Shown here: positions 2,248-26,793 of the stretch, one piece after another
Layout: each line of letters opens with the position of its first letter
Numbering within the stretch: the first letter of the stretch is position 1
Sequence record: PZ583740.1
Length of the DNA: 27,851 bases
Origin: a phage
Strand: one strand, 5' to 3'
The notes under the pieces: model-generated
What the model was told of the DNA's origin: nothing
What the model saw: the letters and a program-made list of their open reading frames with translations, nothing else
Databases searched by the model: none
Program-made: the position numbers and the translations under genes

Positions 2248-3071
2248 GTATTTTTACATTTATCAATGAATCTGCAGATAAACCAGGTCCGAAACCCAGT
2301 AAATCAGAACAACAATGGGTTGAAATAGGGGTTGAATTTTATACAGCAAAAGAAAAGGGAATGACCTCGAAGAAGTTTGCTGAAGAGAAAGGAATCAACT
2401 ATTCGACCTTTACCAAAAGCATGTCAAGATATCATTCGAGAATTCAGACTGCTTATAAAGTATCCAAGCTCAAAAAGAAACCTGCCGGTAAACTTACGAA
2501 GGCTGAACGTCAGCTGATAATGGTGAATAGCTTTAGAAAGAGCATAAGAGATAAGATTGCTAACGAAGGCGCTGCAAGCAACACCAAATCTGCCAGATGG
2601 TTCGCTGAGACAATTAAGAAATCAGTTCGGGGCCACGTAACGGCTAAACCTCAACCGGGTAAGATTTATGCTTATATCTATGATGCAAAGCATAAGGATA
2701 CTCTTCCGTACTGGGACAAATATCCGTTAATCATTTATCTTGGGCTAGGTAAGCACAATTTGATGTATGGTTTGAACTTGCACTATATTCCACCGAAGGC
2801 ACGTCAAGAGTTCCTTGAGGAACTTCTTAAGCAATATGCCAATACTCCTACGATTACGAACAAGACTCATCTGAAGATTGATTGGTCAAAAGTGAAGGGA
2901 TTTAAAGGGGCTGACCAGATGATTAAAGCATATATACCTGGCAATATAAAAGGTACTATCACTGAAATCAAGCCCAGCGACTGGGCAAATGTGGTATTAC
3001 TCCCCCTTCAGCAGTTTTTTTCAAAAGGCAAAAGATTTTCTTCACAGAAAGTATGGAGAAATTCACTTTGA
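2244..3071 (+). CDS. 2: DNA end-protector protein gp2
   Basis: Position between genes 4 and 3 as in T4; about 275 aa from ATG at 2244 (AAGGA upstream). Sequence recall for gp2 is weak, so the call rests largely on synteny and size. Confidence 0.65.
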
Positions 3072-3727
3072 ATTATCAGTTTATATATTCATCGTTAATT
3101 GAAAGGGCCCGTAACAGGGTCCTGATTTCATATAAAGAATCTCATCACATCATTCCGAAATGTATGGGTGGTTCAAATGCTCCGGATAACTTAGTCGATT
3201 TGACTCCCGAGGAACATTATGTAGCCCATCAACTATTGGTTAAAATATATCCTACAAATCCAGGTTTAAGTTTTGCTGCCACATCTATGAGTCAGTCAAG
3301 CAAGTATTTGAAACGCAATAATAAATTATTTGGCTGGTTAAGACGCAGACACGCTGACAATATTTCTAAAAGCCAAACCGGTAAAGTTTACTTTAATAAT
3401 GGTGTCAAATCGATAAAACTATTTCCATGGGAAGATGTTCCGGATGGGTTTGTCAAAGGAAGACATTACAGCCCAACCAAGGGTACAAAACATTCTCGCA
3501 ATAATGGACATTTTAAAAATAAAGAGATTCAGGACGAATTGAGAAAGCGCCGGTGGGAAAAAGATAGGCAAGAAATGTGTAAAAACTTCGGAGTTGATAC
3601 CATCGAGCAAGCTCGAGAGTTGGTCCTAGCATATAAAAAGGAATTGCATCCTCGATACTGGGTAAAGCCAATGTTGGAACGTTATCCGTTTATGACTAAG
3701 CTAAGACTTAACACATTAATAAAATAA
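3053..3727 (+). CDS. HNH homing endonuclease (free-standing)
   Basis: 224 aa with HNH motif [29 protein letters not shown]; inserted between genes 2 and 3, overlapping the gp2 3' end by 19 nt. Confidence 0.8.
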
Positions 3728-3812
3728 TCTATTATCGGTCAGTGTTATTGGTAAGGACAAAAGGTCTAGAACCATTATAACACTGATTGTTTTAAAGCAA
3801 ACAAGGTGCACT

Positions 3813-4412
3813 ATGTCAGGTTTATATAATCAAACTAACACGACTAACTTTATATTAGAGGTGAGCGATTCAAACCTCACACAGACCTTTAAACTCAACG
3901 TTCAAGACGTTACCCTCCCAGGAGTTCACATTCCAGTGACGGATGTCCCTGGGGGAACACAAGGTATAAATCGCTCCAGTCTTCCTGGTAGTACAATAGA
4001 ATTCGACCCGCTGATTGTTAACTTTCTGTGTGACAAAGACCTAAGAGCGTGGCTTGACATCTATAAATGGATGCTCTCGCTTAACAACTACATCACACAC
4101 GAATCAAAAGCATGGAATCCGAAGGGTCGTCCCGAAGCGGTCACGCTTCACATCTTAGATAACAACAAGGACAAAATTGTCATGTCAATCCATTACTATG
4201 GAGCATGGCCGTCCGACCTGTCAGAGATTCAGTATTCATATAAAGAAGATTCTGACCCGGCTATCATTGCAACAGCAACTTTTAACTTTAAGTCTTTTGC
4301 TGTAGAAATTGATGGTATAATAATAGAAGGTAGACCACAGATTGATAGTAATGCAGCAATGCAACAGGAAATCAGGTCTAAGTCAATGCATCCATCTATG
4401 AGAAACGTATGA
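3813..4412 (+). CDS. 3: Tail completion / sheath stabilizer protein gp3 (assigned mainly by position)
   Basis: 199 aa ORF between genes 2 and 1, stop overlaps gene 1 start (ATGA); RBS AAGGTG upstream. Confidence 0.55.
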   Translation: MSGLYNQTNTTNFILEVSDSNLTQTFKLNVQDVTLPGVHIPVTDVPGGTQGINRSSLPGSTIEFDPLIVNFLCDKDLRAWLDIYKWMLSLNNYITHESKAWNPKGRPEAVTLHILDNNKDKIVMSIHYYGAWPSDLSEIQYSYKEDSDPAIIATATFNFKSFAVEIDGIIIEGRPQIDSNAAMQQEIRSKSMHPSMRNV

Positions 4413-5085
4413 AATTAATTGCGATTGTGGGTAAAAAACGCAGTGGTAAAGATACGACTGCTGATTATGTTATTAGTCAAAACGGAACAAAGTGGCAGCT
4501 TGCTGGTCCGATTAAAGAAGCGCTTTATAAAGCGTGGATTCGTCAAGACCTGCCACACAATTTGACCCTGGAAAATTTTGATGGACAAGGTTACGACCGT
4601 GAAAAAACCTTAATAATGAACAACACCGAAGCTTATATTCTTCTGGTTGATGCTCTTGAATGGTTGAAACAACAATACAATCTTGACCTTCCGAATCCAG
4701 ATATGGTTCGTAAAATCATTGAATTTCACACACTAAATAATGTTGAGCCCTGGACAGTTAGACGTTTCATGCAGACCCTTGGAACTGATATTGTTTGTAC
4801 AGAGTTCGACAGCATGTTTTGGATTAAAACTTTTGCATGCGACTATCTTGACAACCTCTATTCTGGATATAAATATTACGTTGTCCCAGATGTTCGTCAA
4901 AAGAATGAACTTGATTCGCTTCGGGCGATGGGTGCTACAATAATCTTTGTAGAACGCGATGAAGCAAATCATTCTACTGATACACACATTACGGAAGCTG
5001 GACTTCCACCACTAGCTAGTGACATTGTTATTAAAAACGATGGCACACTCGAAGAACTTTTTGATAAAATTAATAAGGTAATATA

Positions 5086-5086
<1 letters not shown>
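4409..5086 (+). CDS. 1: Deoxynucleoside monophosphate kinase gp1
   Basis: 225 aa with P-loop GKKRSGKDTTAD; MKLIAIVGKKRSGKDTTADYVIS...LAGPIKEAL matches T4 gp1. Confidence 0.85.
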
Positions 5087-5776
<690 letters not shown>

Positions 5777-5777
<1 letters not shown>

Positions 5778-5806
5778 TGTACAAATGAGTGTAGGTGCAG
5801 TATTAT
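5777..5806 (+). promoter_or_regulatory. Sigma70/T4-early-like promoter (GTGTAC, 18 nt spacer, TATTAT) overlapping a 7-bp-stem palindrome
   Basis: GTGTAC at 5777-5782, TATTAT at 5801-5806; inverted repeat GTGTAGG (5789-5795) / CCTACAC (5810-5816); GGAG RBS then ATG at 5838. Confidence 0.35.
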
Positions 5807-5837
5807 GTTCCTACACCAATGAACAAACGGAGTTAAT

Positions 5838-6170
5838 ATGAACATCAAAACTTACAACGAGTTTTTAGCCGAATCCGCCATCAATGAGACCAAATCAATT
5901 GATGATAGTGAAGGCTCTCTGAAATTTGGTTTAACCAAAAACGCAGATGGTGTTTTCTTTCAGATTGGTAATGAACGTTTTCAAACGTCCAAATATTCCA
6001 AAGCTGCAGTTGAAGCTGTCCTGAAATCTGGTGGCAAGTGGAAAGGCAAAGAAGGTACTAAAGAAATTGGTATCGCTGTTGACGGTGGTATGGCTTATTT
6101 TAAAATTGGCGATGAACAATTTATTATGTCTGCTCGCGGACGTAAAGAACTGGCAAAACTTTATAAATAA
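5838..6170 (+). CDS. Internal protein (IP)-like, capsid-targeted small protein A
   Basis: 110 aa; N-terminus MNIKTYNEFLAE-S resembles the T4 capsid-targeting sequence MKTYQEFIAE with an L-x-E prohead-protease site; GGAG RBS. Confidence 0.7.
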   Translation: MNIKTYNEFLAESAINETKSIDDSEGSLKFGLTKNADGVFFQIGNERFQTSKYSKAAVEAVLKSGGKWKGKEGTKEIGIAVDGGMAYFKIGDEQFIMSARGRKELAKLYK

Positions 6171-6178
6171 GGTTTCTT

Positions 6179-6451
6179 ATGAAAACTTTCAATGAATTTT
6201 TCAACGAGTCACAATTGAATGAAGAAGTAAAAATTAGTAAAGCAGTCAAATCTATGATTGACAATATCAATCACCTGTATAGCATTGACTTGACTGACCA
6301 TATAACAATTGGTAACAAACGCAACTTTTTCGCGTTTGACATTTCAGAACTTGACCAGAACCAAATTAATAACATTGAGCGTTTTGCCAATGACAAGGGT
6401 CTCCGCCATGAGACAGCTGGTTATAAAAAATATGCAATTTATCTTAAATAA
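6179..6451 (+). CDS. Internal protein (IP)-like, capsid-targeted small protein B
   Basis: 90 aa; N-terminus MKTFNEFFNE-S; tightly linked to ORF A via conserved junction AAATAAGGTTTCTTATGAAAAC. Confidence 0.65.
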   Translation: MKTFNEFFNESQLNEEVKISKAVKSMIDNINHLYSIDLTDHITIGNKRNFFAFDISELDQNQINNIERFANDKGLRHETAGYKKYAIYLK

Positions 6452-6459
6452 GGCTTCAA

Positions 6460-6702
6460 ATGAAAACTTATCAAACATTTATAACAGAATCTTCCCATAG
6501 TATGGAAGTTAAACTTGGTCAAGCCCTTGCTGAAGCAGAGCGCCTGTTTGCACGTATCAAAGAACTTGCCGATTCTGTAGATGCATCATCTTTTAAAGGC
6601 GACCAGGGTAAAGTTAAAGCTCTCCTTGCTCTTTGTTCAGACGCGGGTGAAATTGCTAAGAACGGCACCAAGATGAAAAAACGCCTAGAAGATTTAAAAT
6701 AA
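6460..6702 (+). CDS. Internal protein (IP)-like, capsid-targeted small protein C
   Basis: 80 aa; N-terminus MKTYQTFITE-S; junction AAATAAGGCTTCAAATGAAAAC. Confidence 0.65.
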   Translation: MKTYQTFITESSHSMEVKLGQALAEAERLFARIKELADSVDASSFKGDQGKVKALLALCSDAGEIAKNGTKMKKRLEDLK

Positions 6703-6732
6703 GTGTACATGATGGGATAACTGTAGTATGAT
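6703..6732 (+). promoter_or_regulatory. Sigma70/T4-early-like promoter (GTGTAC, 18 nt spacer, TATGAT) overlapping palindrome TGGGATAA/TTATCCCA
   Basis: GTGTAC 6703-6708, TATGAT 6727-6732; 8-bp inverted repeat 6713-6720 / 6732-6739. Confidence 0.35.
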
Positions 6733-6757
6733 TATCCCATCAACTACTGGAGACCAC

Positions 6758-7012
6758 ATGAAAACTTATCAAGAATTTATTACTGAATCTGCAAATGCAA
6801 AAGTTGAGTTTGCTTATGTTGGTTCGCCGCGTGGCAGTTTTTCCAATGAGGAATTCCGTCGTTCACTGGACAATTTCATGCAGTTAAGTGCTGAAGTATC
6901 GCATGATGGTCGTTATGACATCGTTACTATTAGCGGTTCTGAAGACCTTATCAAAAAGTGGTACAAGCAGAAAGATGTTGAGATGCGTTACTATCGTATC
7001 CCTAAAAAATAA
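6758..7012 (+). CDS. Internal protein (IP)-like, capsid-targeted small protein D
   Basis: Track ORF 6728..7012 starts at an upstream codon; ATG at 6758 has a GGAG RBS and gives MKTYQEFITE-S (84 aa). Confidence 0.65.
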   Translation: MKTYQEFITESANAKVEFAYVGSPRGSFSNEEFRRSLDNFMQLSAEVSHDGRYDIVTISGSEDLIKKWYKQKDVEMRYYRIPKK

Positions 7013-7041
7013 GTGTACTTTTAAATGGGATAACGTATAAT
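7013..7041 (+). promoter_or_regulatory. Sigma70/T4-early-like promoter (GTGTAC, 17 nt spacer, TATAAT) overlapping palindrome TGGGATAA/TTATCCCA
   Basis: GTGTAC 7013-7018, TATAAT 7036-7041; inverted repeat 7026-7033 / 7041-7048; about 80 percent identical to the unit at 6700-6760. Confidence 0.4.
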
Positions 7042-7070
7042 TATCCCATCAACTACTGAGGGCCAAAAAA

Positions 7071-7292
7071 ATGAAAACGTATCAAGAATTTATTAACGAA
7101 GCTAAAATGCATGACGAATTGCCGATTCAATCTAAAACTTTTGATGGTACACTGAAGGATTTTAAAAAGTTGCCAAATGATAAATTGGCAAAACTTACAG
7201 GTTCTGTATCTGAAACAGGTGGTAAGGTTACTTTCTCTGCCCGTGGTATTGTCAACCTTAAAAAACTTTTGAAAGCCGTTGGTGCTGAATAA
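7071..7292 (+). CDS. Internal protein (IP)-like, capsid-targeted small protein E
   Basis: 73 aa; N-terminus MKTYQEFINE-A; GAGGG RBS. Confidence 0.65.
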   Translation: MKTYQEFINEAKMHDELPIQSKTFDGTLKDFKKLPNDKLAKLTGSVSETGGKVTFSARGIVNLKKLLKAVGAE

Positions 7293-7350
7293 AACAGTTA
7301 CTGGTCTAGTATATCATAACCTAGACCTATCAAAAAGTGAGGAGAATAAA

Positions 7351-7536
7351 ATGAAACGTTGTGAATTAATTAGAAATGTTACTGCCTTTGTTGCTGTTAC
7401 CACTTTTGGTTTTAGCATGTTTGCTGGCTTTATGTTGAATATGCTTTCAACTTCTGAGAATATAATCTCTTTAGTAGTTGCATTTTTAATTGGTTCAATC
7501 TCTTTCGTTATGGATAAAATCTCTAAAGGTGAGTAA
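7351..7536 (+). CDS. Small predicted membrane protein (two hydrophobic helices), function unknown
   Basis: ATG at 7351 preceded by strong GAGGAG RBS; 61 aa with hydrophobic stretches [23 protein letters not shown] and [17 protein letters not shown]. Track ORF 7279..7536 starts at an upstream TTG. Confidence 0.5.
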
Positions 7537-7550
7537 AATGTATAAAGTGT

Positions 7551-8519
7551 ATGCGGATTATCAGAAAGATTCGCCTGCAAGGCTTCACCAGCGGTGAATG
7601 GGTAGCTCGCGAGAAGATTCATGGTACCAACTTTTCATTAATCATTGAACAAGACAATGTGACATGTGCGAAACGCACTGGACCTATCCTGCCTGCAGAA
7701 GATTTCTATGGTTATGAAATTGTATTAAAGAATTATGCTGATTCTATTAAATCTGTGCAGAAACTTTTGCAGGATATTAATTACCAGGCATACCAGATTT
7801 ATGGTGAGTTTGCCGGGGCAGGTATCCAGAAGAATGTGGATTACGGTGATAAAGATTTTTATGTATTTGATATCCGCGTTACTAAAGAAGATGGTTTTGA
7901 ATCCGTCCTGACTGACACCTTGATGGAAGCATTCTGTATTATCCATAAGTTTAAGGTTGCACCGCGCCTGGCTACAGGTAGTTTTGAAGAATTAATTAAG
8001 CTCCCTAATGACCTGGATTCTGTTGTCCCTGATTACAATTTTACAGTGGATAACGCGGGTTTGACTACAGCAAATACCACTGATTTTGTTGCAAAGGTGG
8101 AAGGTAAAGTATTCACTGCCGAAGGATTTGTATTAAAACCTGATGTTCCTGCATGGTTACCTAACGGCGAGCGTGTAGCGATTAAATGTAAGAACTCTAA
8201 ATTCAGTGAAAAGAAAAAGTCTGATAAGCCTATTAAGGCTGCAGTGGTTCTGAGCCAAAATGATATGGATTTACTGTGGAATTTCACTGATTATGTGACT
8301 GTTAACCGTATCAACAATGTTATCAGTAAAATTGGGGAAGTAACACCGAAGGATTTTGGAAAGGTAATGGGGTTAACAGTCCAAGATATTCTGGAAGAAG
8401 CGGGGCGCGAAGGTCTTGAATTGTCCCTGACGGAAAATCCTGTTGAAGTTAAAAAGCAACTTATTGTAAATGTAAGAGAAACATTAAGACATGTTTGGAT
8501 TGCATTAGTTAGTGAATAA
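7551..8519 (+). CDS. rnlB: RNA ligase 2 (Rnl2 / gp24.1)
   Basis: 322 aa with nucleotidyltransferase motif [20 protein letters not shown] and strong overall similarity to T4 Rnl2; true 5' end uncertain (ATG with good RBS at 7538 is in another frame). Confidence 0.85.
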
Positions 8520-8547
8520 AAATAAAGGGCCTTGCGGCCCTTTTTTA
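8520..8547. terminator. Bidirectional rho-independent terminator between rnlB and gene 24
   Basis: Hairpin GGGCC-TTGC-GGCCC (8527-8540) flanked by an A-run upstream and T6 downstream; lies between convergent stops. Confidence 0.7.
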
Positions 8548-9825
8548 ATTTATTTCAGTCAGAACTTTAGGAAGTTTCACACCAAGCAGTACAGACATAT
8601 CTGAACGTCCTGCCATCAAATCCATATTTGTTGCATCAATAATACGAGCTTGTTTATCATCAGCAGTCACTGTATAAGGGTTAGCTGCTAACGCATAACG
8701 AACCATTAATGCAATAGACGGCTGCAAACTTTCTGGGTCAACGACAACTTTGAACGAACCAACATGTTCAGGGTCTTCCAGGTCAAGACCTTCGGTATAA
8801 GGTGCATAAAACAGTGAACCCACCATCTCTTTCCCACCGAAATCTTCTTTAACACCAACAGTCACATAATCAAATGGAGTGTTCGTATCGCAATAAAGCG
8901 GTAGACCATTATCCAAGAAACCATACGCATTATCGGAGAGATATTTCTCATCTTGTGGACGATGCTTCAACCAACCAGAACCAGCCAAAACTGCAGCTAC
9001 ACGCGTAGAAGCAACAACGTATGTTGCGGTGTAAGAAGTTGCCCGCTGAATATGGGAGACCATCTCACACATGATTTCGTACAACTTGCGTGAAGCTTCC
9101 GGAGAGTTGGTATAAGACAGGTCAATCAGGCCATCATCACAGAGTCCAGCAACTTTATAACGCTTGGAAACTGTTACCAGGGATTGCAGGATATCTTTGT
9201 TAATTTCATCAGCCATTTCGGTAGCTAACAGGTCTTCCAGGAAGTTTGGAGCGTCAAAACCATTTGCTTCCAGGTCCTGGGCCAGTTCCACTGTAACAGT
9301 GCTTTTCAGCTTACGAGATTTAACCGGAGCATTCCATTTGTTAACCAAAAATTTAGCTTCGGCAATTTCGACTTCCTGTGGTCCTTCAAAACGTTCGGTG
9401 ATTGCAGCTTCGGACATAATACGGATGGTCAATTTAACCATCGCTTCTTGAAGCTGGTCATACTCATCGCCCGTTGCTCCAGCAAATGGAGTTGCTACCA
9501 GCGCTTTATAAACTACATTTTCAAACTGGAACAAATCGTCTTTAGCATAAACTGCGCCAGCAACAAAAACCGGAATGGTCGCACGGTCTTTTGCTGATAC
9601 TGCACCAGAATAGGTTGCACCAGTCTGGAAAGATAATTCATCTTTCTGAGTCAGGTATTTAAGACCGTATAATGCCGCCAGTGGCTGGGATGTGCGCTGT
9701 TGTGCTACTAAATCGGTGTAAATCAGTTTAGTTGTAGCTCTGGTTAAAGCTACTAGATTCGGTCGACCAATCGAAGAACTTGTGGTCGTGGTCGACTCTT
9801 TTAAGAGTTCGTTAATTTTAGCCAT
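8545..9825 (-). CDS. 24: Head vertex protein gp24
   Basis: 426 aa, MAKINELLKESTTTTSSSIGRPNLVALTRATTKLIYTDLVAQQRTSQPLAALYG...; gp23-paralog fold; matches T4 gp24. Confidence 0.85.
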   Translation of the reverse strand: MAKINELLKESTTTTSSSIGRPNLVALTRATTKLIYTDLVAQQRTSQPLAALYGLKYLTQKDELSFQTGATYSGAVSAKDRATIPVFVAGAVYAKDDLFQFENVVYKALVATPFAGATGDEYDQLQEAMVKLTIRIMSEAAITERFEGPQEVEIAEAKFLVNKWNAPVKSRKLKSTVTVELAQDLEANGFDAPNFLEDLLATEMADEINKDILQSLVTVSKRYKVAGLCDDGLIDLSYTNSPEASRKLYEIMCEMVSHIQRATSYTATYVVASTRVAAVLAGSGWLKHRPQDEKYLSDNAYGFLDNGLPLYCDTNTPFDYVTVGVKEDFGGKEMVGSLFYAPYTEGLDLEDPEHVGSFKVVVDPESLQPSIALMVRYALAANPYTVTADDKQARIIDATNMDLMAGRSDMSVLLGVKLPKVLTEIN

Positions 9826-9850
9826 TGCTATTTCCTTTTGTGATATACTT

Positions 9851-9858
9851 TATTTATA
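9851..9858 (-). promoter_or_regulatory. T4-type late promoter (TATAAATA on minus strand) for gene 24
   Basis: Reverse complement of 9851-9858 is TATAAATA, 25 nt upstream of the gp24 ATG. Confidence 0.55.
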
Positions 9859-9864
9859 AAAGTT

Positions 9865-9894
9865 GTTTACAACCAGATTAAGATAAGACATAAT
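9865..9894 (+). promoter_or_regulatory. T4-early-like promoter (GTTTAC, 18 nt spacer, CATAAT) for the plus-strand 93-aa ORF
   Basis: GTTTAC at 9865-9870 and CATAAT at 9889-9894; AT-rich upstream. Confidence 0.4.
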
Positions 9895-9935
9895 GATTCC
9901 ATACTGAGTTAACAAACAAAACCTGGAGTTTAAAA

Positions 9936-10217
9936 ATGAACAAAGCAACTTTCCTTCTGAACACCTTTAAAAATCTGGAAATTGAAGTTATTGCCTTGGT
10001 CAACAAATACCCAAATGGTGTTAATGGTAATGCTCTGAACAAACTAGTTAAAAAATATGAAAACTTAGCATATGACACTGATTTCTGGTGGAATGGTAAT
10101 TATTCTACTCACACTAAAGATAAAAATGGTAACTGGTTGAAACTTCAAGAAAACAATGTTAACTTCAGAGACCTTATCAAGCGCCGGGTAGAAGTTCATT
10201 TAAATGGTATGGTATGA
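9936..10217 (+). CDS. Hypothetical protein, opposite-strand gene between head genes 24 and 23
   Basis: 93 aa ORF with GGAG RBS 8 nt upstream of ATG, own promoter-like element and a downstream hairpin terminator; no recognisable motif. Confidence 0.5.
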   Translation: MNKATFLLNTFKNLEIEVIALVNKYPNGVNGNALNKLVKKYENLAYDTDFWWNGNYSTHTKDKNGNWLKLQENNVNFRDLIKRRVEVHLNGMV

Positions 10218-10224
10218 AAACAAG

Positions 10225-10252
10225 AAAGGGACCTCAAGGGTCCCTTTTTATT
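10225..10252. terminator. Bidirectional rho-independent terminator after gene 23 and after the 93-aa ORF
   Basis: Hairpin GGGACC-TCAAG-GGTCCC (10228-10244) followed by T-run on plus strand and T-rich tract on minus strand. Confidence 0.7.
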
Positions 10253-10267
10253 TAACTTAATCTAGGA

Positions 10268-11827
10268 TTAAATTCCTTTAACATATACGCGGCGGAAGTA
10301 ACCGTTCAAGCCAAGGCTGTTAACGATGTCCGGCATGCCGTTCTGAATGCGCTTGGTCGGAGCCTGAGCAGCAGGGTCAGCAAACGGGTTGATACCGATA
10401 CCGTAACGGGTTTTGAAGCCCATAACCGGCTGGAAGTTTTTCGGGTCAGAACCACGCAGCGGGGTCAGTGCAACATATGGTGCGTAGTAGATACCAGCAT
10501 CCATTTCGTTAGCGCCTTTGTAACCGATGGTGAAGTAATCTGCACGAGCATACTGGTCGATATAGACACGGTATTTGCCACCCAGAACACCAGCGAACAC
10601 AGCTTTAGTGGTGTCAACGTTGAAACCTTTACCCAGACCCTGAGCAGCATAACTAACAGAAGTATCAACAGCAGCCAGCACGTTAACTACGTTACGGGAA
10701 GCGATGATGAAGTTACCTGCACCACGACCGGTCTGACGAGCGATTTCAGCGGCTTCTTTATCAATCTGGAACAGTAAAGCTTTGAAGCTTTCACCAGCCC
10801 AACGAGCACCACGGATATCAATCGGGTCCTGGAAGTCAAACACACCAGCTTTAGCGCCAACGGTGTTGGTCATACCAGATTTACCAACCTGAGCGGAGTA
10901 GTTAATCCAATCGATAACTTCACGGTTGATTTCCAGCATAATTTCGGTAGCCAGAATACCACTCAATTCGGCATCAGCATCCATACCATGAACAGCGCGC
11001 AGGTCCTGTGCCAGTTCGATGGAGTAGCTTGCTTTCAGCTGACGGGATTTAGCTTCGATAACTTGTTTATCGATACGGAAGCCCATTTCGTTCCACGGGT
11101 TATCAGTAGAACCGTTAAAGCCTTCCTGCAATTCGGCGATAGAAGTAGCCATACCTTCAGCGATTTCTGCCAACTTACCAGCTTCGAGCAGTTTGGTAAC
11201 TTCAGCGTCAAGTTTAGCAGCATCAGTAGCACCAGCATCAACGGTTACAGCTTCAACAGCCTGGTAGTGTGCAGAACCGGTTGCTTCGAAGAAGTGAGAA
11301 TAAATTTTACCAACTTCCAGAACTTTGCTTGCAGCCAGTGCTTCAAAAGTCTGAGCAGCGCCCTGACCAGAGAACATAGCGTTCGGAGCATACATCGGAT
11401 GGAAAGCTTCTTTAGCACCAGCAGCGACAGGGTCTTTACCGTATACTGCACGCAGTGCAAATACCTGGCCAGTCGGGTTGTTCAGAGGCTGTACGCCACA
11501 AATATCAAACGCAATCAGATGCGGGATAGCACGACGAACCATACCCATAACTGCCGGCCCAATCTGAGTTACTGCACCAGAGGTCTGGCCAGCAGCGATA
11601 TTGGTAGCATCATAACCATGGTCACCACCGATTTCAGCTTCGGTCAGGAAAGAACCAAATGCTTCGGAGATTTTTTCGTCACGGTATTCAGGAGCGGTCA
11701 GAATATCTTGTTCCTGGTTTTCAAAGATTTTAGCGATGATAGCTTGTTTAGAAGCACCAACGATTTCAGGAAGAGCTTCGTTTTCCAGCAGAGCGGACCA
11801 TTTTTGAACTAATGCATTCTTTTTCAT
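10268..11827 (-). CDS. 23: Major capsid protein gp23
   Basis: 519 aa; near-identical stretches to T4 gp23 (AIIAKIFENQE, GAVTQIGPAVMGMVRRAIP, DPKNFQPVMGFKTRYGIGINPF, YFRRVYVKGI). Confidence 0.95.
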   Translation of the reverse strand: MKKNALVQKWSALLENEALPEIVGASKQAIIAKIFENQEQDILTAPEYRDEKISEAFGSFLTEAEIGGDHGYDATNIAAGQTSGAVTQIGPAVMGMVRRAIPHLIAFDICGVQPLNNPTGQVFALRAVYGKDPVAAGAKEAFHPMYAPNAMFSGQGAAQTFEALAASKVLEVGKIYSHFFEATGSAHYQAVEAVTVDAGATDAAKLDAEVTKLLEAGKLAEIAEGMATSIAELQEGFNGSTDNPWNEMGFRIDKQVIEAKSRQLKASYSIELAQDLRAVHGMDADAELSGILATEIMLEINREVIDWINYSAQVGKSGMTNTVGAKAGVFDFQDPIDIRGARWAGESFKALLFQIDKEAAEIARQTGRGAGNFIIASRNVVNVLAAVDTSVSYAAQGLGKGFNVDTTKAVFAGVLGGKYRVYIDQYARADYFTIGYKGANEMDAGIYYAPYVALTPLRGSDPKNFQPVMGFKTRYGIGINPFADPAAQAPTKRIQNGMPDIVNSLGLNGYFRRVYVKGI

Positions 11828-11848
11828 GTGTTGTATAACCTTATTAAA

Positions 11849-12667
11849 TTAAGAAATTCGTGATGCTGCGAGAGCAGACAAGTCCGCGAAGGACAGGGTA
11901 GGCTTGGCGCCTTTTTCTTCAACTGCTTCTGAAATGTAATTCAGTGCCGCAGCATCGTCTACATTTTTATTTATAGCGGCTTCGGTGATTGGTTTGTCGG
12001 TGGGTTCTACCTGACCTTTAACCATTTCAACGATAGCGCCAATTTTGGTACCGAATGCATCAGAGTATTCCATGCCTTCTACCAGAGAACCAACTTTTTC
12101 TTTCTGAGATTCAGTCAGGTCTTTAGTTGCTTCAGTCAACGCAACTTCACGTTGGACATAATTGATATAAGCATCACGCTTAGAAACTTCTTCGAACAGG
12201 TTAGCGGTTTCTTCTTTCTGTTCAGCCAGTTCTTCCTGCATTTCTGCAACAACATCGACAGATTCTTCCGGAACAACAACGTTGTGCTCAACGAACAGTT
12301 CTTTCATGCCGGTGAACATGGATTCGAACAGGTCAGCTTTAATGCCACGGTCGACAGCCAGTTTATTTTCAGCAAGCCATTCTTTAGCAACGTGGTCCAG
12401 GAATTTAGCTGCAGATTCTTTCAGTTTTTTCTCTGCTTTTTCGTCGGATTCTTCTTTATTCTTTTCGACTTCTTCTTCAGCTTTTTCAGCGATGGCGTGA
12501 ATGTGAGATTCTGCCAGTTTGATGGCGTGTTGCTTGACGGTAGCTTCGAATACAGTGCCGAAGGTAGCTTTCGCTTCCGGGGACAAATTAACTGATTCGA
12601 AAATACTATCGAGAGCAACGGAAGCATCGATATTCTGAGCTTCAGAAATGAGTTGTTCTTTAAGCAT
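11849..12667 (-). CDS. 22: Prohead core scaffold protein gp22
   Basis: 272 aa, highly acidic coiled-coil-like protein between genes 21 and 23, as in T4. Confidence 0.8.
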   Translation of the reverse strand: MLKEQLISEAQNIDASVALDSIFESVNLSPEAKATFGTVFEATVKQHAIKLAESHIHAIAEKAEEEVEKNKEESDEKAEKKLKESAAKFLDHVAKEWLAENKLAVDRGIKADLFESMFTGMKELFVEHNVVVPEESVDVVAEMQEELAEQKEETANLFEEVSKRDAYINYVQREVALTEATKDLTESQKEKVGSLVEGMEYSDAFGTKIGAIVEMVKGQVEPTDKPITEAAINKNVDDAAALNYISEAVEEKGAKPTLSFADLSALAASRIS

Positions 12668-12696
12668 TTTGTAGTCCTGTTGTTAAGATATACATT

Positions 12697-12704
12697 TATT
12701 TATA
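12697..12704 (-). promoter_or_regulatory. T4-type late promoter (TATAAATA on minus strand) for gene 22
   Basis: Reverse complement of 12697-12704 is TATAAATA, 29 nt upstream of the gp22 ATG; overlaps gp21 stop codon. Confidence 0.5.
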
Positions 12705-13338
12705 ACGTCTTTAAAGCCTCTGCGAGAGCCATAAAGGCGTCATCGGCACTGGTATCGGCAACAGCCGTTTGTGATTCTGTAATCTGCTTTGGTTTGACCC
12801 AAGCGTCCGGAGCACTTGGCCCCCATACTGCGTCTACTCCAACCGTCAATTTAAAACCTTCATTAACGATGTTATAACCTTTTGCTGATTTAGTCAGGGA
12901 ACCAAGTCCACGACTAGATACGCCAGGAATCCAACCTGCTCTTATATTCGCAGCAAGTTTATCACCTGGACCATGGTCGCCTTCTATAATACGTGCGCGG
13001 CCATATACATCATTCCCTTTCCACCACATTTCCTCGATAATAATTGCTGCCTGCATAGGGTCAACGTTTGCACGAGGTGGATGGTTTAATTCTCCAAGAG
13101 ACTGCTTGGTTTCAACCTGTTCGACGATATAGTCCGCAACAGCTTTTTCCAAAATATGTTTAGGATAAAGTCGTTTATTACGGTTAACAACTTCAGCTTG
13201 TAGGAAAATACCTTCAATATAAAGTCCTGGCTTTAAACCGCTGCTGGAACCATCATGAGATTCCAACATCGGTACACCATCTTTAATTTCGCCCGGTTGA
13301 CCCCAGTGTTCGATTAGTAACTCTGGTTTCTGTTCCAT
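12700..13338 (-). CDS. 21: Prohead protease gp21
   Basis: 212 aa, [21 protein letters not shown]...; same length as T4 gp21 and matching sequence. Confidence 0.85.
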   Translation of the reverse strand: MEQKPELLIEHWGQPGEIKDGVPMLESHDGSSSGLKPGLYIEGIFLQAEVVNRNKRLYPKHILEKAVADYIVEQVETKQSLGELNHPPRANVDPMQAAIIIEEMWWKGNDVYGRARIIEGDHGPGDKLAANIRAGWIPGVSSRGLGSLTKSAKGYNIVNEGFKLTVGVDAVWGPSAPDAWVKPKQITESQTAVADTSADDAFMALAEALKTL

Positions 13339-13766
13339 TAATCAAGTCCGAATGCTTTACGCTTAGCTCGAGCTTTTTTGCGCTTGCGCTCTGCTCTGAT
13401 TTGCGTAGATGGGTTTGCTCTTTTCGTTTTAGTAGCCAGACGGGCAATTTGACGACGTTTAGCTTTAGAAAGACCGGTTGTTTGGAAAGCATTACGCTTA
13501 CGAGTAGCTAGGTCTTTTGTGCGGGTTAACTCACCGCGAGACGATACATGTTTAACGATAAATTCGTTAAGCTGAACACCTTCATTCAGAGCGCCGATAA
13601 CCGTTGCTTTTTCGTATTCACCGGCTGCAAACATGTTTTCTACAATAATATTTATATCGTCTTTTTCTAAGGCTTCGGATAATGAATCAAATTGTCCCTG
13701 AGCTTCTTCGGAAACACTTTCAATGTTTTCAAGAGTTAATTCGTAATCATCAGGGATAATAAACAT
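13338..13766 (-). CDS. 68: Prohead core protein gp68
   Basis: 142 aa with basic C-terminal tail; position between 67 and 21 as in T4. Confidence 0.7.
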
Positions 13767-13993
13767 TATTCATCGTCCTCATCGTCAGATTCTTTTTTGT
13801 CTTTCTTTTCTGCTTTGCCGTCGTCCTTGCCTTCATCTTCTTTAGGCTCTTCGCCTTCAATCATGATGGAACGTGCAATTTCAATCTTACGTTCTTCAAT
13901 CAAACTACCGCATACTGGGCCAATGTTTTCAGCAAAATATTTGCGAACGGCTACGAGGTCGTTTGATTTAATGGCTTCAAATAAATCATCCAT
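13766..13993 (-). CDS. 67: Prohead core protein gp67
   Basis: 75 aa with acidic C-terminus; position immediately downstream of gene 20 as in T4. Confidence 0.7.
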
Positions 13994-15567
13994 TAGAAAT
14001 CCTCTTCTTCTTCTTCAGGGTTTTGGAAACGAGCCTCTTTGGACTCCAATTCAATTTGCTTAGCTTCTTGATTAATTTCTTCATCAGACATCTGGAGGAA
14101 ATCCTTCATAGCCGTTTGATGTGAAATATATTTACCGATAAACGGTTCAGCCATCGTTAGCATATTGATTCTGCGTTCCATGATTTCTGCATCTTTCATT
14201 TCGGTGAAATAGCTATCACGGTTGAACGTAACTTTAATATTATTTAGTTCCTTGTCCCATTCCTCTTCTGAAATAATTTTTTTCAGGATAAGGTTTGTTT
14301 TAAGCGGGTCGAGGAAAACTTCTTCAAATTTATTCTGTAGCTGTCGAATCCATTTAGAGAAATTCAATTCATCGCGAGTAATTGTCGCACCTGCATCAAA
14401 CATAACGCCGCTGTTCTGGTCGTTAGGGATACGAGATAATGGAATTCGGAGCGCCTGATATAGGTTGTTCTTAAACCAGCGAACATCGTCCATATCCGAC
14501 ATGCCTTGTGCACCCGGGAGTGTATCAACTTCAGTGACTGCTTTACCATCACGACGTTGCAACCAATAGTCTTCTGTCATTGACATGTTGTGCTGTTGGT
14601 TTTTGATTTTACCCGTAGTTGCATCATATACGACACGGTTTTTCATCGTGTTCATAATATGTTGCATGTGTGCTGCTGCTTTACGAGACGGCATATTCCC
14701 GGTATCGATATAAAAGACTCGGCGGTCTGGGGCACGAGTTATACGATAAATGACTAAAGCATCTTCTAATAGTTTTAATTGGTTTGCAGGTTTAATTGCT
14801 CGTTGCAAGTATCCGATGATATTCTTGCCACAACAATCGAGTAATCCAGAATGCGCATATACAATCGCCGCACGAGGAATTTTTATTTTAGTACCTGCTT
14901 CATATATACGACCATCGGCACAATAACTTTCATGGCCAGTATCGTATACAAAATATTCTCTGTAACCGTCGACAATTTTTGTACCGTTTTCCATGCGTGT
15001 AACGATTTCACGGATGAACTGGATTTGTCTTGGGTCAAGGCGACGAAGTTCTTGAACTCCATCTTTAAGTTTTGATGGGTTGATAATTTTGTGGAAGAAA
15101 ATTCGAGAATCCACATACCAACGTTTAAAGTGGTCAGAACCTTTGCGCTCGAAATTAAGGAGGTTATTGACTTCCGAGAATTCTTCGAGGATTCGGTCTT
15201 TAATTTTCTGACTAAATTCGGTAGCATCAAGGTTAAGAGCTACAACATCTTTACCGTCTTCAAAAACGATAGCATCAGACACAATTTCTTGCACTGCGTT
15301 ATCAACTTCATAATTATTTAGTAAGTTGCGGTAGGTGTCAATTAATTCCCTGGTATTTTTTACTTCAGGTTCATTGCTCCCGAACATCTGTTGCATCAAT
15401 GCATTATACGGGACGTTTTGTTCTTGTGACTCAATTTCACGAGCCCCATCATCAAACTTCGGCCCGGTCATTGACTCTAAATTATTTTTTTCTTGTTGCT
15501 TATATTCTTGTTCATCTTCTTTAGCCCAAGGCTTAAGAAAATTTAGTATTGTGTTAAAACCTGCCAT
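13993..15567 (-). CDS. 20: Portal vertex protein gp20
   Basis: 524 aa; long stretches matching T4 gp20 ([58 protein letters not shown]). Confidence 0.9.
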
Positions 15568-15595
15568 TAGAGTCTCCGAAGTTTGTCTATTACTT

Positions 15596-15603
15596 TATTT
15601 ATA
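15596..15603 (-). promoter_or_regulatory. T4-type late promoter (TATAAATA on minus strand) for gene 20
   Basis: Reverse complement of 15596-15603 is TATAAATA, 28 nt upstream of the gp20 ATG; overlaps the stop of the upstream endonuclease gene. Confidence 0.5.
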
Positions 15604-16186
15604 TTGGAGTTCGGGTACAATTTTTATGATATCGAACAATCGCAGAGCGAGTGGACTCCGTACCACATACGGGACAAATTGCACGAGGTAAATTTAATGA
15701 TTTTCCTTTATTTGGATGTTCTTTACCAAACATAGGATTATTTTCACCGCTCATTGCTTTAGAATGGTCTGGTCGTTTTCTTCCTGATAATGCTTTGGAT
15801 TGTCTTGGACGTTTAACACCAGTATTGCTTTTATTTCTTTTATCGATAGATTCCTGTGTCCAAACCTTACCTTTCATCGACATACCAAAAAATCCATTTG
15901 GTTGAGCTAATGACATATTTATATAGTTTGGTGATTTAACCACATTGTATAATTTTTGTACTCGTAATTCTTCTTCAATAGCTTCTTCGTGCGTATTAAA
16001 TGTTTTTAAGATACGAGTTTTAAACAACTGAGGATTATCACGTAATTCATTTTTCCAAATGGTTTTATATTTTTTAGAACCAACGGAACCATGATAATTT
16101 TCAGTTATTCGTTGAATAGTTGTCGAGCCGATGTAACGACGGGGAAGGAGATTCCCCGTATATACTGTAAGATAAGTGCAATACAT
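15599..16186 (-). CDS. GIY-YIG homing endonuclease (Seg-like)
   Basis: 195 aa; N-terminal YLTVYTGNLLPRRYIGST (GIY...YIG), NUMOD3-like repeats (SGRKRPDHSKAMSGENNPMFGK), C-terminal CPVCG...HKNC zinc finger; GGAG RBS. Confidence 0.8.
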   Translation of the reverse strand: MYCTYLTVYTGNLLPRRYIGSTTIQRITENYHGSVGSKKYKTIWKNELRDNPQLFKTRILKTFNTHEEAIEEELRVQKLYNVVKSPNYINMSLAQPNGFFGMSMKGKVWTQESIDKRNKSNTGVKRPRQSKALSGRKRPDHSKAMSGENNPMFGKEHPNKGKSLNLPRAICPVCGTESTRSAIVRYHKNCTRTPI

Positions 16187-16232: not shown

Positions 16233-16598
16233 TTATTCCCACCAGTCAATTGCGAACGTCGCTTCGAACGTCTCAATCTCATTATTGGAGTCCCAATCCA
16301 TCTGGACTTCCCCAACGTTGGTTGGCCACATGCCGGTAATAACAACTTCTTTCGTAACGGTCTTGCCATCACGATGGAACTGGCGGACAGTAGCGGTTTT
16401 CTTATAATCAGCAGGAGCTGCACCGGTGATTTCGTTAGTCATACCGTGACACAGATTTTGCCAATCAACAATTGCTTGACGAACTTTATGAGCATCGTCG
16501 TTATAAATCGTAATAGTCCAGTCATCAAATGTACGGTCACCCGCCACGTTGATTTTACGGTTCATGTAACCGACCGGAACTTTTTCTACAATGCCGAT
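16233..16598 (-). pseudogene. 19: Tail tube protein gp19, 5'-truncated fragment (about 42 N-terminal codons missing)
   Basis: In-frame region ...IGIVEKVPVGYMNRKINVAGDRTFDDWT...NEIETFEATFAIDWWE matches T4 gp19 residues ~43-163; an in-frame TAA at 16599-16601 and the gp11 stop at 16636 leave no room for the N-terminus. Confidence 0.6.
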
Positions 16599-24169: not shown

Positions 24170-26116
24170 TTATAGTGTAATTGGTTCAAGGTCAATCTTT
24201 GTATATTGAGGACGAAGGCCATTCTCAAATACAATCAGTGAACCATCTTGCGTGTATATATTATCTTGGTTAGGACTTGCATAAAGTTCGATTGATTGAA
24301 CTTCAAAGCGCTCGGAGGTCAATCCAATCGCGGCGATATCCCAAAAAATATAATCAGAGTAATAGTCAATTTCGCCAATTGCGTAATAAACTGTTTGGTC
24401 AGCCGGAGCTTCCATTTTATTAAAGTCATCTTGTAGGTAAGGCTGAATGTTTACGTTTTCAATAACATCGCCTGGACGGAATGGACCAATTACCATTTTA
24501 CCATCACCACGAGAATCTTTATCAGTTGCAACAATGCGAACGTTATAGGCTTCACCCGTGGTCGGAACAAATTCAAATTCACTTGATTCGACTGAACGGT
24601 TGCCATACTGGTTATAGTATTTAATGCCGGATTCTGGAGTCTTAAAGAAGTTCAGGACTTCACGCACCATCGAAATGGTTGCAGATGAACCAAGAATACT
24701 ATGGTCAGTATTATCCACATACGTAAGCATTTTTGACTTAGCAAAACTTCTGTTAAAGATTTCAACTTCATCGATATAATAACGGTCAATCTGATTAATG
24801 ATTTGTGCTTGCAACCATTGTTCAGATTCTTGTAATTTGTTCAGCGCATAAGATACTTTGATATTATGTTTAAGAAACAAATAATCCGGAGAAATTACCG
24901 AGGGTGTAATTGTTGATACGTTGAACTCACTAAGATAGTTCTGGATGTCCTCACGCTGCACTGCAGTGAGATACAAGCCCGATTTAGGCTTAACTGATAT
25001 AAACGCATACCCAGGCTTATTTGCGTCTGTAAACGTCTGTACGGCTTGCACGATTGAACCAAATCTTTCAGATACGAAGGTATCATAATCTGTTCCGGTG
25101 ACAGCACGCATCTGCGCTTCACGTTTAACAACAGCCAGTTCACGGATACGTTCGATATCTTCTGGGTCACCGCCGCCATCGGCACCGACATAATCAGGGT
25201 CGTTGTTGTAGTTTTCAGTAATTTTATCCACTGTGATATAAGACAAAGTATCGGCATAACTGAAATCAACAGCACCGTTTGCATCTGCCCCTGAGGTGCG
25301 AAGATATTCAATAACAATTGTCGAATCTTGCACAGGTTTGAGACCGCCAATATAGTTGGCTTCCATAACGCCGCCGGCTACGGATTTGGTGGATTCACCT
25401 TCACCGAAGAAAAATTCAGTATAGTCATCGATTGTTTCACGCATATAAAATATGGTGGAAGTCGAACCAGCATGGACCATTGATTTGTTCGTCCAGTCAA
25501 CCCACTCAACACCGTTCACATATAACTTAACTTCTTTGCGGTCGATATCCGGGTCGCGAATAAGAATAGGTTGTTTCGGGTCATATAAAAGTTCTGTACG
25601 AATAATACGACCCTGGGCTAGAGATACAATCGGAAGGTATTGGTTGTTAATATCTTTAACCGCAATAACGTTTTCCGTGGTAACAAAAACATAAGGGTCA
25701 GCTGATGTATCACGAGCATAGGCCAGGAATTTAGTTCCTCGTGGGATTTCGATATTCGATGGTTGCAGAGCATGAGAACATGTCAGCATAACCGAAGTCT
25801 TTGCGGCCGAACGTGAAGATGGAAGATATCCATTATCCTGTGCCGCCTGAACAACCGAAGACCTTAAGTTTGCAGTTCCGATAAATGATTCGTAAACTGC
25901 CGTGTTAGCAAACTGTTGCATATACAATGTATTGTATGCAAGCATATCAATCAGGATATTCATTCGCGAACCGACGAAATCATAATCCTTAAATTCATCC
26001 TGGCTTGATAACCAGTCGATGATGTTCTTTTTAATTTCTTCAAACGTAGCTCCCACAAATACTTTTGGGATAGCGTTAACGGTTCTTGTTAATTGGTAAT
26101 TCGTAGGAGTAGCCAT
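24170..26116 (-). CDS. 6: Baseplate wedge protein gp6
   Basis: 648 aa, [22 protein letters not shown]...GADGGGDPEDIERIRELA...SLIVFENGLRPQY matches T4 gp6. Confidence 0.9.
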   Translation of the reverse strand: MATPTNYQLTRTVNAIPKVFVGATFEEIKKNIIDWLSSQDEFKDYDFVGSRMNILIDMLAYNTLYMQQFANTAVYESFIGTANLRSSVVQAAQDNGYLPSSRSAAKTSVMLTCSHALQPSNIEIPRGTKFLAYARDTSADPYVFVTTENVIAVKDINNQYLPIVSLAQGRIIRTELLYDPKQPILIRDPDIDRKEVKLYVNGVEWVDWTNKSMVHAGSTSTIFYMRETIDDYTEFFFGEGESTKSVAGGVMEANYIGGLKPVQDSTIVIEYLRTSGADANGAVDFSYADTLSYITVDKITENYNNDPDYVGADGGGDPEDIERIRELAVVKREAQMRAVTGTDYDTFVSERFGSIVQAVQTFTDANKPGYAFISVKPKSGLYLTAVQREDIQNYLSEFNVSTITPSVISPDYLFLKHNIKVSYALNKLQESEQWLQAQIINQIDRYYIDEVEIFNRSFAKSKMLTYVDNTDHSILGSSATISMVREVLNFFKTPESGIKYYNQYGNRSVESSEFEFVPTTGEAYNVRIVATDKDSRGDGKMVIGPFRPGDVIENVNIQPYLQDDFNKMEAPADQTVYYAIGEIDYYSDYIFWDIAAIGLTSERFEVQSIELYASPNQDNIYTQDGSLIVFENGLRPQYTKIDLEPITL

Positions 26117-26793
26117 TATTCTGAATCCTGTTTAAATTGTTTTATCATTTTGTCATAAGCCGTATTTGGAAATCCGTTTTCAATGGCCAATCGTGTCATT
26201 TTTCTCCAACCTGGCTTATCATTTTCTTTCCATAATTTGAATAAAATATCATATGATTGCCAAATGGGGTGTTTTCTATTATTAAGTTTGCATAGGTCAA
26301 TAACAGATTGAGGTCTTGGTCTTTTATATAAAGGATGCTCTTCTCCTCTAACAAAAACCCTCGGTTTTGGAGGTAGCTTAGGTTTTCTCCTTTTGGCCAT
26401 AGCTTTTTCAAAATTTTCAATATGTTCTTTACTTCTAGGTGGCTTTGGCCTACCCTTCATTTTGTCTGATGTTTGCTTTTTTGAAGATTCCTTATGCTTT
26501 CTTCCTCGCATACTTCCTTTGCCACCCAAATCTATATTATAATATCTATCATCATAAATTATAGATTCGTCTACTAAAAATTCTTCGTAGTCGTAAGCTT
26601 CATCTTCAGTATCAAAAAATTTTATTATTTTTGTCTCAAACGAATCCTTTCCATATTTTTTATAAGCCTTTTTGATAAGCTCCCCTGTGCCGTAATATCC
26701 ATCAAACATATCGTCAGTAGAATGTTTGCCTATATACTTTTTACCATTTTCTAGGTTTGTAGTTACATATACAAAATTAAATTCTTTGTTCAT
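26116..26793 (-). CDS. GIY-YIG homing endonuclease (Seg-like)
   Basis: 225 aa; N-terminal [18 protein letters not shown] (GIY-YIG), basic NUMOD-like central region; start overlaps gp5.4 stop, stop overlaps gp6 start. Confidence 0.75.

Follow-up and report, generated by a model that had tools for sequence, protein, structure and literature searches.

A trna.4 ortholog beside a non-native junction, most likely of assembly or concatenation origin, in a Gaprivervirus-like phage sequence

Introduction

The block of genes for internal proteins (IP) and the block containing rnlB and gp24 are normally far apart in relatives of phage T4, and in the genome of Escherichia phage vB_EcoM_RZ (RZ) they are separated by 38.8 kb. 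In the window, by which we mean the whole 27,851-nt stretch of phage DNA analysed here (PZ583740.1), an array of IP-like genes is instead followed closely by a small open reading frame (ORF) and then by DNA homologous to rnlB. What is this small ORF, and does its position between two normally distant blocks reflect an evolved gene order? The original prediction, made from the letters of the sequence, had offered two answers: that the ORF specifies a small early protein of the 24.2/24.3 type, or that it is a novel gene created at a recombination junction.

Results

The small ORF matches T4 trna.4 over its full length

The last of the five IP-like (internal head/virion protein) genes occupies positions 7071-7292 on the forward strand and matches the profile phrog_8765 ('internal virion protein', E=1.3e-20). 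Its N-terminus (MKTYQEFINEA) is similar to those of the other four IP-like genes, and the gene is 99.5% identical to its counterpart in RZ. A 61-codon ORF had been reported less than 60 nt beyond this gene, and this description holds: the ATG at position 7351 lies after a 58-nt spacer, is preceded by the sequence GGAGAA, and opens a reading frame on the same strand that ends at 7536. The product was also said to contain two hydrophobic helices, and both are evident. Hand-computed Kyte-Doolittle means over 19 residues are ~1.7 for residues 10-28 and ~2.0 for residues 37-55 (a 15-residue profile was also made), and a single-sequence AlphaFold2 model with a pLDDT of 75 places helices at residues 3-32 and 38-59 with a five-residue loop between them.

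Searching with the 61-aa product, as had been suggested, gave a clear identification. The profile phrog_1692 aligned with residues 1-61 of 61 (E=1.8e-33), and tblastn found matches in 980 of 50,697 phage records, with coverage of at least 80% in 977. The full-length profile match and the matches in 980 records show that the ORF is a real gene and not a chance ORF. Using BLASTP, T4 Trna.4 aligned with the product over its full length and without gaps, with 40 of 61 residues identical (66%, E=7e-29), and 'Trna.4' is the label that this gene carries in the annotations of RZ, VR5 and T4. The T4 protein (NP_049748, PHROG 1692, described as a 'conserved hypothetical predicted membrane protein') is likewise 61 aa long with two hydrophobic helices; the N-terminal MKRCELIRN and C-terminal VMDKISKGE are identical in the two proteins, and the genes share the same Shine-Dalgarno and start context. 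The RZ protein differs from that of the window at a single residue (98.4% identity). Across six orthologs the invariant residues fall at the two ends, namely M1, K2, R3, C4, E5, I7 and N9 (MKRCE.I.N) and M54, D55, K56 and I57 (MDKI), and the helices vary. Neither Pfam nor NCBIfam yielded a family for the 61-aa protein, and with no match in either database the labels 'DUF2929' and 'prohead core protein' given to it in some GenBank records are unsupported. Our literature search for Trna.4 and Trna.3 returned only false matches.

The position of the ORF is also that of trna.4. The gene order in T4 is 3, 1, 57A, 57B (Acb1), ipI, trna.4, trna.3, trna.2 and then the tRNA genes, and the order around trna.4 is kept, with a variable number of IP genes, in RZ and P8 (Gaprivervirus), VR5 (Dhakavirus), CkP1 (Karamvirus) and pKp20 (Jiaodavirus). 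Thus trna.4 lies directly downstream of IP genes in five genera of Tevenvirinae (Tequatrovirus, Gaprivervirus, Dhakavirus, Karamvirus and Jiaodavirus). In the window the upstream neighbour is again an IP gene and the downstream neighbour is again the start of trna.3, although here trna.3, which in T4 is the normal downstream neighbour, is cut after 26 nt at a breakpoint. By homology and position, then, the ORF at 7351-7536 is a complete ortholog of T4 trna.4, a known, conserved and uncharacterised gene with two predicted transmembrane helices, in its native place. The proposal of a novel gene at a recombination junction does not survive this identification, as the gene is a conserved IP-gene neighbour in T4, RZ, VR5, CkP1 and pKp20.

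Assignment to the early genes of the rnlB neighbourhood, the other proposal, fares no better. The small size of the ORF and its nearness to rnlB, a nearness seen in the window only, would fit a gene of the 24.2/24.3 type. However, BLASTP produced no alignment, at E<=100, between the ORF product and RZ gp216 or gp217, the small ORFs upstream of rnlB. With respect to the breakpoint described below, moreover, the ORF belongs to the IP half and follows the same order as the IP locus in every relative, the start of rnlB is absent, and the match is to T4 trna.4. We regard this assignment as having next to no chance of being correct.

The spacer ahead of trna.4 is colinear with relatives and carries a deletion in an early-promoter element

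A check of read support had been proposed for the spacer between the last IP-like gene and the ORF (7293-7350, forward strand). When aligned to RZ, VR5, T4, CkP1 and pKp20 the spacer is colinear with all of these relatives and contains no breakpoint; the break lies further downstream, between 7564 and 7565. The spacer holds a 7-bp inverted repeat (GGTCTAG...CTAGACC) and the Shine-Dalgarno sequence GGAGAA. The predicted fold of the hairpin is -9.5 kcal/mol with a z-score of -1.03, so that its stability is not significant, and it is not terminator-like.

In T4 the counterpart of this spacer is an early-promoter element, TTTACA-N17-TACTAT, and VR5, pKp20 and CkP1 have similar elements. The window and RZ have both lost the -35 element ahead of trna.4 through a deletion of 4 nt. 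A scan with the early-promoter consensus TTTACW-N17-TAYWAT, taken from PMC4122927, found no match at 7293-7350, and across the window as a whole it found four matches against 2.4 expected, which is no enrichment. Cassettes that combine a promoter, a stem-loop and a Shine-Dalgarno sequence, comparable to the PeSL cassettes described in PMC4122927, stand ahead of the genes of the IP array and, in T4, ahead of trna.4 as well; trna.4 of the window has no such complete cassette. Because its early promoter carries the 4-nt deletion, trna.4 of the window is probably transcribed by read-through from the IP genes.

A blunt breakpoint joins trna.3 to rnlB 28 nt after trna.4

The window departs from its relatives at 7564|7565 (J1), a point 28 nt past the trna.4 stop codon and 4 nt outside the interval that the original prediction had flagged, and it is because of this breakpoint that the ORF adjoins rnlB. 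Upstream of the break lie the start codon and first 26 nt only of trna.3 (7539-7564, forward strand; MYKVYADYQ...), which match the 5' end of P8 ORF055 and RZ gp172 and are identical to both until 7564, where the sequences diverge. P8 ORF055 is 53% identical to T4 Trna.3. Beyond the break the trna.3 start runs out of frame into rnlB DNA, generating a chimeric ORF of 19 codons (7539-7597). Comparison with RZ using blastn assigned window positions 3724-7564 to RZ 83731-79891 and positions 7565-15585 to RZ 118722-110668, so that RZ 79891 is joined to RZ 118722, two points 38.8 kb apart, in the orientation of a tandem duplication or a circle. The join is blunt: when the three sequences were aligned and the parental flanks compared, the parents had 0 nt in common and there were no inserted bases or filler.

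Adjacency of the IP and rnlB loci as a normal arrangement in related phages was looked for and was found in none of 50,697 phage genomes. All megablast matches of positions 5800-8600 to the phage collection were split, with query positions 1-1765 matching the ip/trna.4 locus and positions 1766-2801 matching rnlB/gp24 elsewhere in the same genomes; 804-870 phage matches all end exactly at 7564|7565, from either side, and no record among the 50,697 genomes spans the join. With a 251-nt query centred on the join each half was 100% identical to several phages, none of them spanning it. An exact search for a 27-mer across the join found no occurrence in IMG/VR, JGI metagenomes or GTDB genomes, and megablast of positions 7000-8200 found no match among complete E. 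coli genomes or PLSDB plasmids. Nor was a strain-specific 40-mer of trna.4, which would report the unrearranged parent, present in IMG/VR, JGI metagenomes or GTDB genomes, and the exact proteins specified by the truncated rnlB and by trna.4 are not on record in the assembly index. The empty 40-mer, region and exact-protein searches mean that the strain is new to the collections searched, in which neither the junction nor the unrearranged parent was recovered.

The original prediction was thus right that a junction is present here and that the adjacency is not the normal order, but the junction lies downstream of the ORF, in trna.3 and rnlB, and it looks non-native, of the kind that assembly or concatenation would leave.

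The rnlB gene lacks its 5' end

It had also been stated that rnlB follows the ORF. DNA homologous to rnlB does follow, but it begins only at 7565, is not intact, and is separated from the ORF by the trna.3 start at 7539-7564. The gene (RNA ligase 2; 7565-8519, forward strand) lacks its first 53 nt, corresponding to 17 codons and 2 nt, and homology begins at nucleotide 54. Several comparisons agree on this: the rnlB coding sequence of SP18 begins 53 nt ahead of its match to the window; TIGR02307 scores 329.4 bits (cut-off 197) from profile position 16; phrog_548 aligns from position 18; and the T4 Rnl2 chain 2hvq_A aligns from residue 17 (E=2.6e-141). Both PF09414 and PF18043 match the remainder, which thus has the nucleotidyltransferase and C-terminal domains of the family, and the ligase motif EKIHGTN of T4 RNA ligase 2 (rnlB/gp24.1; PDB 2HVQ and 1S68) is present.

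A complete Rnl2 N-terminus with its own start codon was not found in the window. Unlike the T4 gene, rnlB here is without its first 17 codons and 2 nt, its own start and its ribosome-binding site, and it stands out of frame behind the trna.3 start. The sole in-frame ATG, at 7551, lies in DNA derived from trna.3 and has no Shine-Dalgarno sequence. As drawn, rnlB would be expressed poorly or not at all: ribosomes initiating at the trna.3 ATG would translate 19 codons before terminating, and translation in the rnlB frame would have to rely on an ATG with no Shine-Dalgarno sequence and would yield a protein missing 17 N-terminal residues.

The 3' end of rnlB shows no such disturbance. The gene is convergent with gp24 over a shared terminator, as in relatives, and a bidirectional terminator hairpin between the two genes (8524-8543) was found on both strands in the arrangement seen in SP18 and RZ. 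This terminator is native.

A second blunt breakpoint removes essential genes

A second breakpoint (J2) lies at 16595|16596, where RZ 110266 is joined to RZ 98473. The resulting fusion is out of frame: on one side gp19 is without its 5'-terminal 129 nt, and on the other only the initial 41 nt of gp12 are left. Missing at this point are 11.8 kb of sequence (RZ 98474-110265) containing gp12, wac, gp13, gp14, gp15, gp16, gp17, gp18 and the 5' end of gp19. As at the first breakpoint, the join is blunt with 0 nt common to the parental sequences, and the phage collection contains no record that spans it. Alignments with some relatives that carry a gp12 of the DK-13 type had pointed to a 19-nt microhomology at this join; it proved to be a weak, gapped resemblance (GAACnTTTT), and direct alignment gives a blunt join.

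Both ends of the window lie inside gp5, 1,088 bp apart in RZ coordinates, so that the genes cut in the window are gp5, gp12, gp19, rnlB and trna.3. The window contains no terminal repeats that would indicate a circular contig, and no Ns. It falls into three segments of 7,564, 9,031 and 11,256 nt, which share the same orientation, change monotonically in length (descending when the reverse strand is read), and stand in an order that is a cyclic rotation of the RZ reference order. The same orientation together with a monotonic length order would be expected by chance for three segments in ~1/12 of cases, which is suggestive only. In sum, the window corresponds to 38.8 kb of a Gaprivervirus genome like that of RZ, cyclically permuted, with part of the interior deleted and with at least two blunt mid-gene breakpoints.

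The underlying sequence is that of a natural phage strain

RZ is the closest relative of the window (~98.5% identity), and the differences between the two are those expected of natural variation. Across 21 genes, 204 of 240 differences fall at third codon positions, and 201 of the codon changes are synonymous as against 30 non-synonymous; in rnlB itself the figures are 10 and 2. The overwhelmingly synonymous character of these differences rules out synthetic noise as the origin of the sequence, and it indicates that the underlying genome belongs to a real phage strain, is under purifying selection, and has cut genes that are otherwise intact. The window also differs from RZ by three free-standing homing endonuclease inserts (3053-3727, 15599-16186 and 26116-26793), each of 650-675 bp and each at a gene boundary; these are ordinary differences from RZ.

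The joins are most likely not the product of phage evolution

The genes gp5 and gp12 to gp19 are indispensable to a T4-type phage, and a phage genome with the sequence of the window could not be viable. This order is incompatible with a viable T4-type phage, and the genes that are cut show no other decay, from which we infer that the junction did not evolve as an arrangement of genes. We nonetheless considered a viable and novel T4-like lineage in which the IP block has moved beside rnlB and the small ORF serves as a junction or linker gene. The adjacency itself, seen in the window only, would suit such a lineage, as would the description of IP loci as hyperplastic regions subject to modular shuffling (PMC4122927). 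Yet rnlB is short by 53 nt, trna.3 is cut after 26 nt and out of frame, the second break deletes the essential genes gp12 to gp19 while cutting gp19 and gp12, the arrangement is absent from all relatives, and the small ORF is the conserved trna.4 and no linker. The shuffling described for the region, furthermore, takes place at intergenic promoter/stem-loop cassettes and not within genes (PMC4122927). These facts leave a viable novel lineage with very little credibility, slightly more than we grant a 24.2/24.3-type gene.

Two kinds of natural rearrangement offer a standard of comparison. Documented in vivo rearrangements of T4 use homologies of 2-10 bp and respect the headful size (PMC9391042). 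Among the segmental amplifications and deletions reported there (Hp17, and dmd-tifA with compensating deletions) a tandem amplification resembles the first join in topology and a deletion resembles the second; however, those events preserve the essential genes and the headful size, whereas in the window essential genes are lost, a repeat unit of 38.8 kb or the absence of 131 kb is implied, and both joins have 0 nt of homology. With regard to PeSL-mediated shuffling, the IP array of the window is also a hyperplastic locus of the type treated in the literature (PMC4122927, and Repoila 1994 cited there), but the first join lies outside any such cassette and inside two coding sequences, and its partner, rnlB, belongs to a conserved structural region. 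The homology of 2-10 bp, the viable genome and the independent occurrence that would mark natural recombination are lacking at both joins. Judged by their sequences, the two blunt mid-gene joins fit neither the amplification and deletion pattern of T4 nor that of cassette shuffling.

Could the joins nevertheless be real and have formed in vivo? They might belong to a defective 'mini-genome' of ~29 kb, a circle or tandem concatemer holding the late structural region only, that arose by illegitimate end-joining and would be propagated by recombination-dependent replication and headful packaging with a helper phage. Several observations accord with such an element. The first join has tandem-duplication or circle topology, and the three segments plus the 1,088-bp gap in gp5 close a circle in reference order; all segments are ~98-99% identical to one relative, as expected of a single parental genome; the joins are free of Ns and adaptor sequence; and T4 readily generates amplifications and deletions (PMC9391042). 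On the other hand, the junctions of T4 rearrangements carry microhomology of 2-10 bp (PMC9391042) in contrast to the 0 nt found at both joins, the junction was not found in the public phage, virome, metagenome and bacterial genome collections searched, and from a closed circle an assembler would normally recover the missing 1,088 bp of gp5. It also counts against such an element that, to our knowledge, no defective element of this kind has been described for T4-type phages. We consider it unlikely, if not negligibly so, that the joins are real in this sense, and the fully specified form, a helper-dependent Gaprivervirus mini-genome of ~29 kb carrying late structural genes and the IP/Acb1 block only, strikes us as distinctly improbable. 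If it were true, T4-type phages would have their first described example of a defective, parasitic derivative, and the 61-aa gene would still be an ordinary trna.4.

The reading that we favour, and to which we attach good though not full confidence, is that a known gene stands beside a non-native junction that came most likely from assembly or concatenation, either by abutting separate pieces without spacers or by assembling a chimeric template. Misassembly at repeats by de Bruijn or overlap methods is excluded, as no sequence is common to the parents at either join; for the same reason an artefact would have to be a concatenation or a chimeric template. The joins would most likely have been made after the phage was harvested, and candidate causes are that contigs, or the reference intervals that had coverage, were strung together with no spacers, that a library molecule was chimeric, or that some other step in the handling of the sequence was responsible. 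The adjacency of the IP and rnlB loci is thus most likely not a biological feature.

Implications for annotation and for Trna.4

The main value of this analysis is one of quality control, in that the adjacency of the IP genes to rnlB should not be taken as evidence of a new gene order or of a junction gene. Annotated as it stands, the window would appear to have lost gp12 to gp19, to encode a shortened RNA ligase 2 wrongly begun at 7551, and to contain a spurious ORF of 19 codons. It is best handled as an RZ-like Gaprivervirus that is otherwise normal and is represented by three colinear pieces.

Trna.4 itself, found in 980 records and five genera, is conserved very widely among T-even phages as a small predicted membrane protein; its strikingly invariant tails are predicted to be cytoplasmic, and it is a reasonable target for knockout or interaction studies. 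Its likeliest form would be a hairpin of two helices inserted in the inner membrane, with the N- and C-termini facing the cytoplasm and with the invariant tails (MKRCE.I.N and MDKI) as the parts through which it acts, and it would presumably be produced early in infection with the transcript of the tRNA region. The suggested topology is in keeping with an N-terminal tail that carries three positive charges and a short putative periplasmic loop, STSEN.

A second breakpoint and the order of the segments

Comparison with Escherichia phage vB_EcoM_RZ (RZ), the closest relative, revealed a second blunt breakpoint at window positions 16595-16596, an out-of-frame fusion between gp19, which lacks its initial 129 nt, and the 41 nt that open gp12. 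Relative to RZ, 11.8 kb are missing at 16595|16596, comprising gp12, wac, gp13-gp18 and the 5' end of gp19, and none of the phage records that we searched crosses this join. The three segments of the window are monotonic in length (7,564, 9,031 and 11,256 nt), and their order is that of the reference rotated cyclically, resembling a circle or a tandem repeat. Positions 1 and 27851 both fall inside gp5, corresponding to RZ 86795 and 87883, which are 1,088 bp apart; the window sequence contains neither terminal repeats nor Ns.

At the first breakpoint (7564|7565), a chimeric 19-codon ORF (7539-7597, plus strand) begins at the start of trna.3, which has a good Shine-Dalgarno sequence (GGTGAG), and continues into rnlB DNA in a different reading frame. 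Gene-calling programs may instead annotate RnlB with a spurious start at 7551.

Other genes and inserts in the window

Just 5' of trna.4, the gene for a small, 61-aa predicted membrane protein, an early-promoter-like element (GTTTAC-N17-TACTAT) is found in T4 (2016-2091 of the sequence compared, L005), VR5, pKp20 and CkP1. In both the window (7293-7350) and RZ the -35 element carries a 4-nt deletion, and a 7-bp inverted repeat replaces the element of the other phages. Labels of trna.4 orthologs are inconsistent among GenBank relatives (L001 ORF054; EAWsc9), ranging over "prohead core protein", "DUF2929 domain-containing protein", "putative membrane protein" and "unknown function"; a Pfam scan of the trna.4 product gave no support for the first two.

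Upstream lie five plus-strand genes resembling those for internal head proteins (IP; 5838-7292), whose near-identical N-termini are capsid-targeting sequences of the MKTYQEFI.E type. A cassette of upstream and 5' sequence is repeated within the array (6696-6799 versus 7006-7111, 78% identity). The array is a typical hyperplastic IP locus. The preceding gene 57B homolog (5322-5777, plus strand) matches the Pfam family of the anti-CBASS nuclease Acb1 at E=1.7e-59. In several GenBank relatives it is called "RNA ligase" or "hypothetical protein".

Three inserts of ~650-675 bp, absent from RZ and all at gene boundaries, each encode a free-standing homing endonuclease: at gp2/gp3 (3053-3727, plus strand; phrog_655), at gp20/gp19 (15599-16186, minus strand; phrog_10820/314, with a NUMOD3 motif) and at gp6/gp5.4 (26116-26793, minus strand; SegE-like GIY-YIG). 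Between gp24 and gp23, on the strand opposite to them, is a conserved 93-aa ORF of unknown function (9936-10217, plus strand; phrog_6003, E=3.6e-47), also found in RZ and SP18 and preceded by a near-consensus early promoter (9866-9894).
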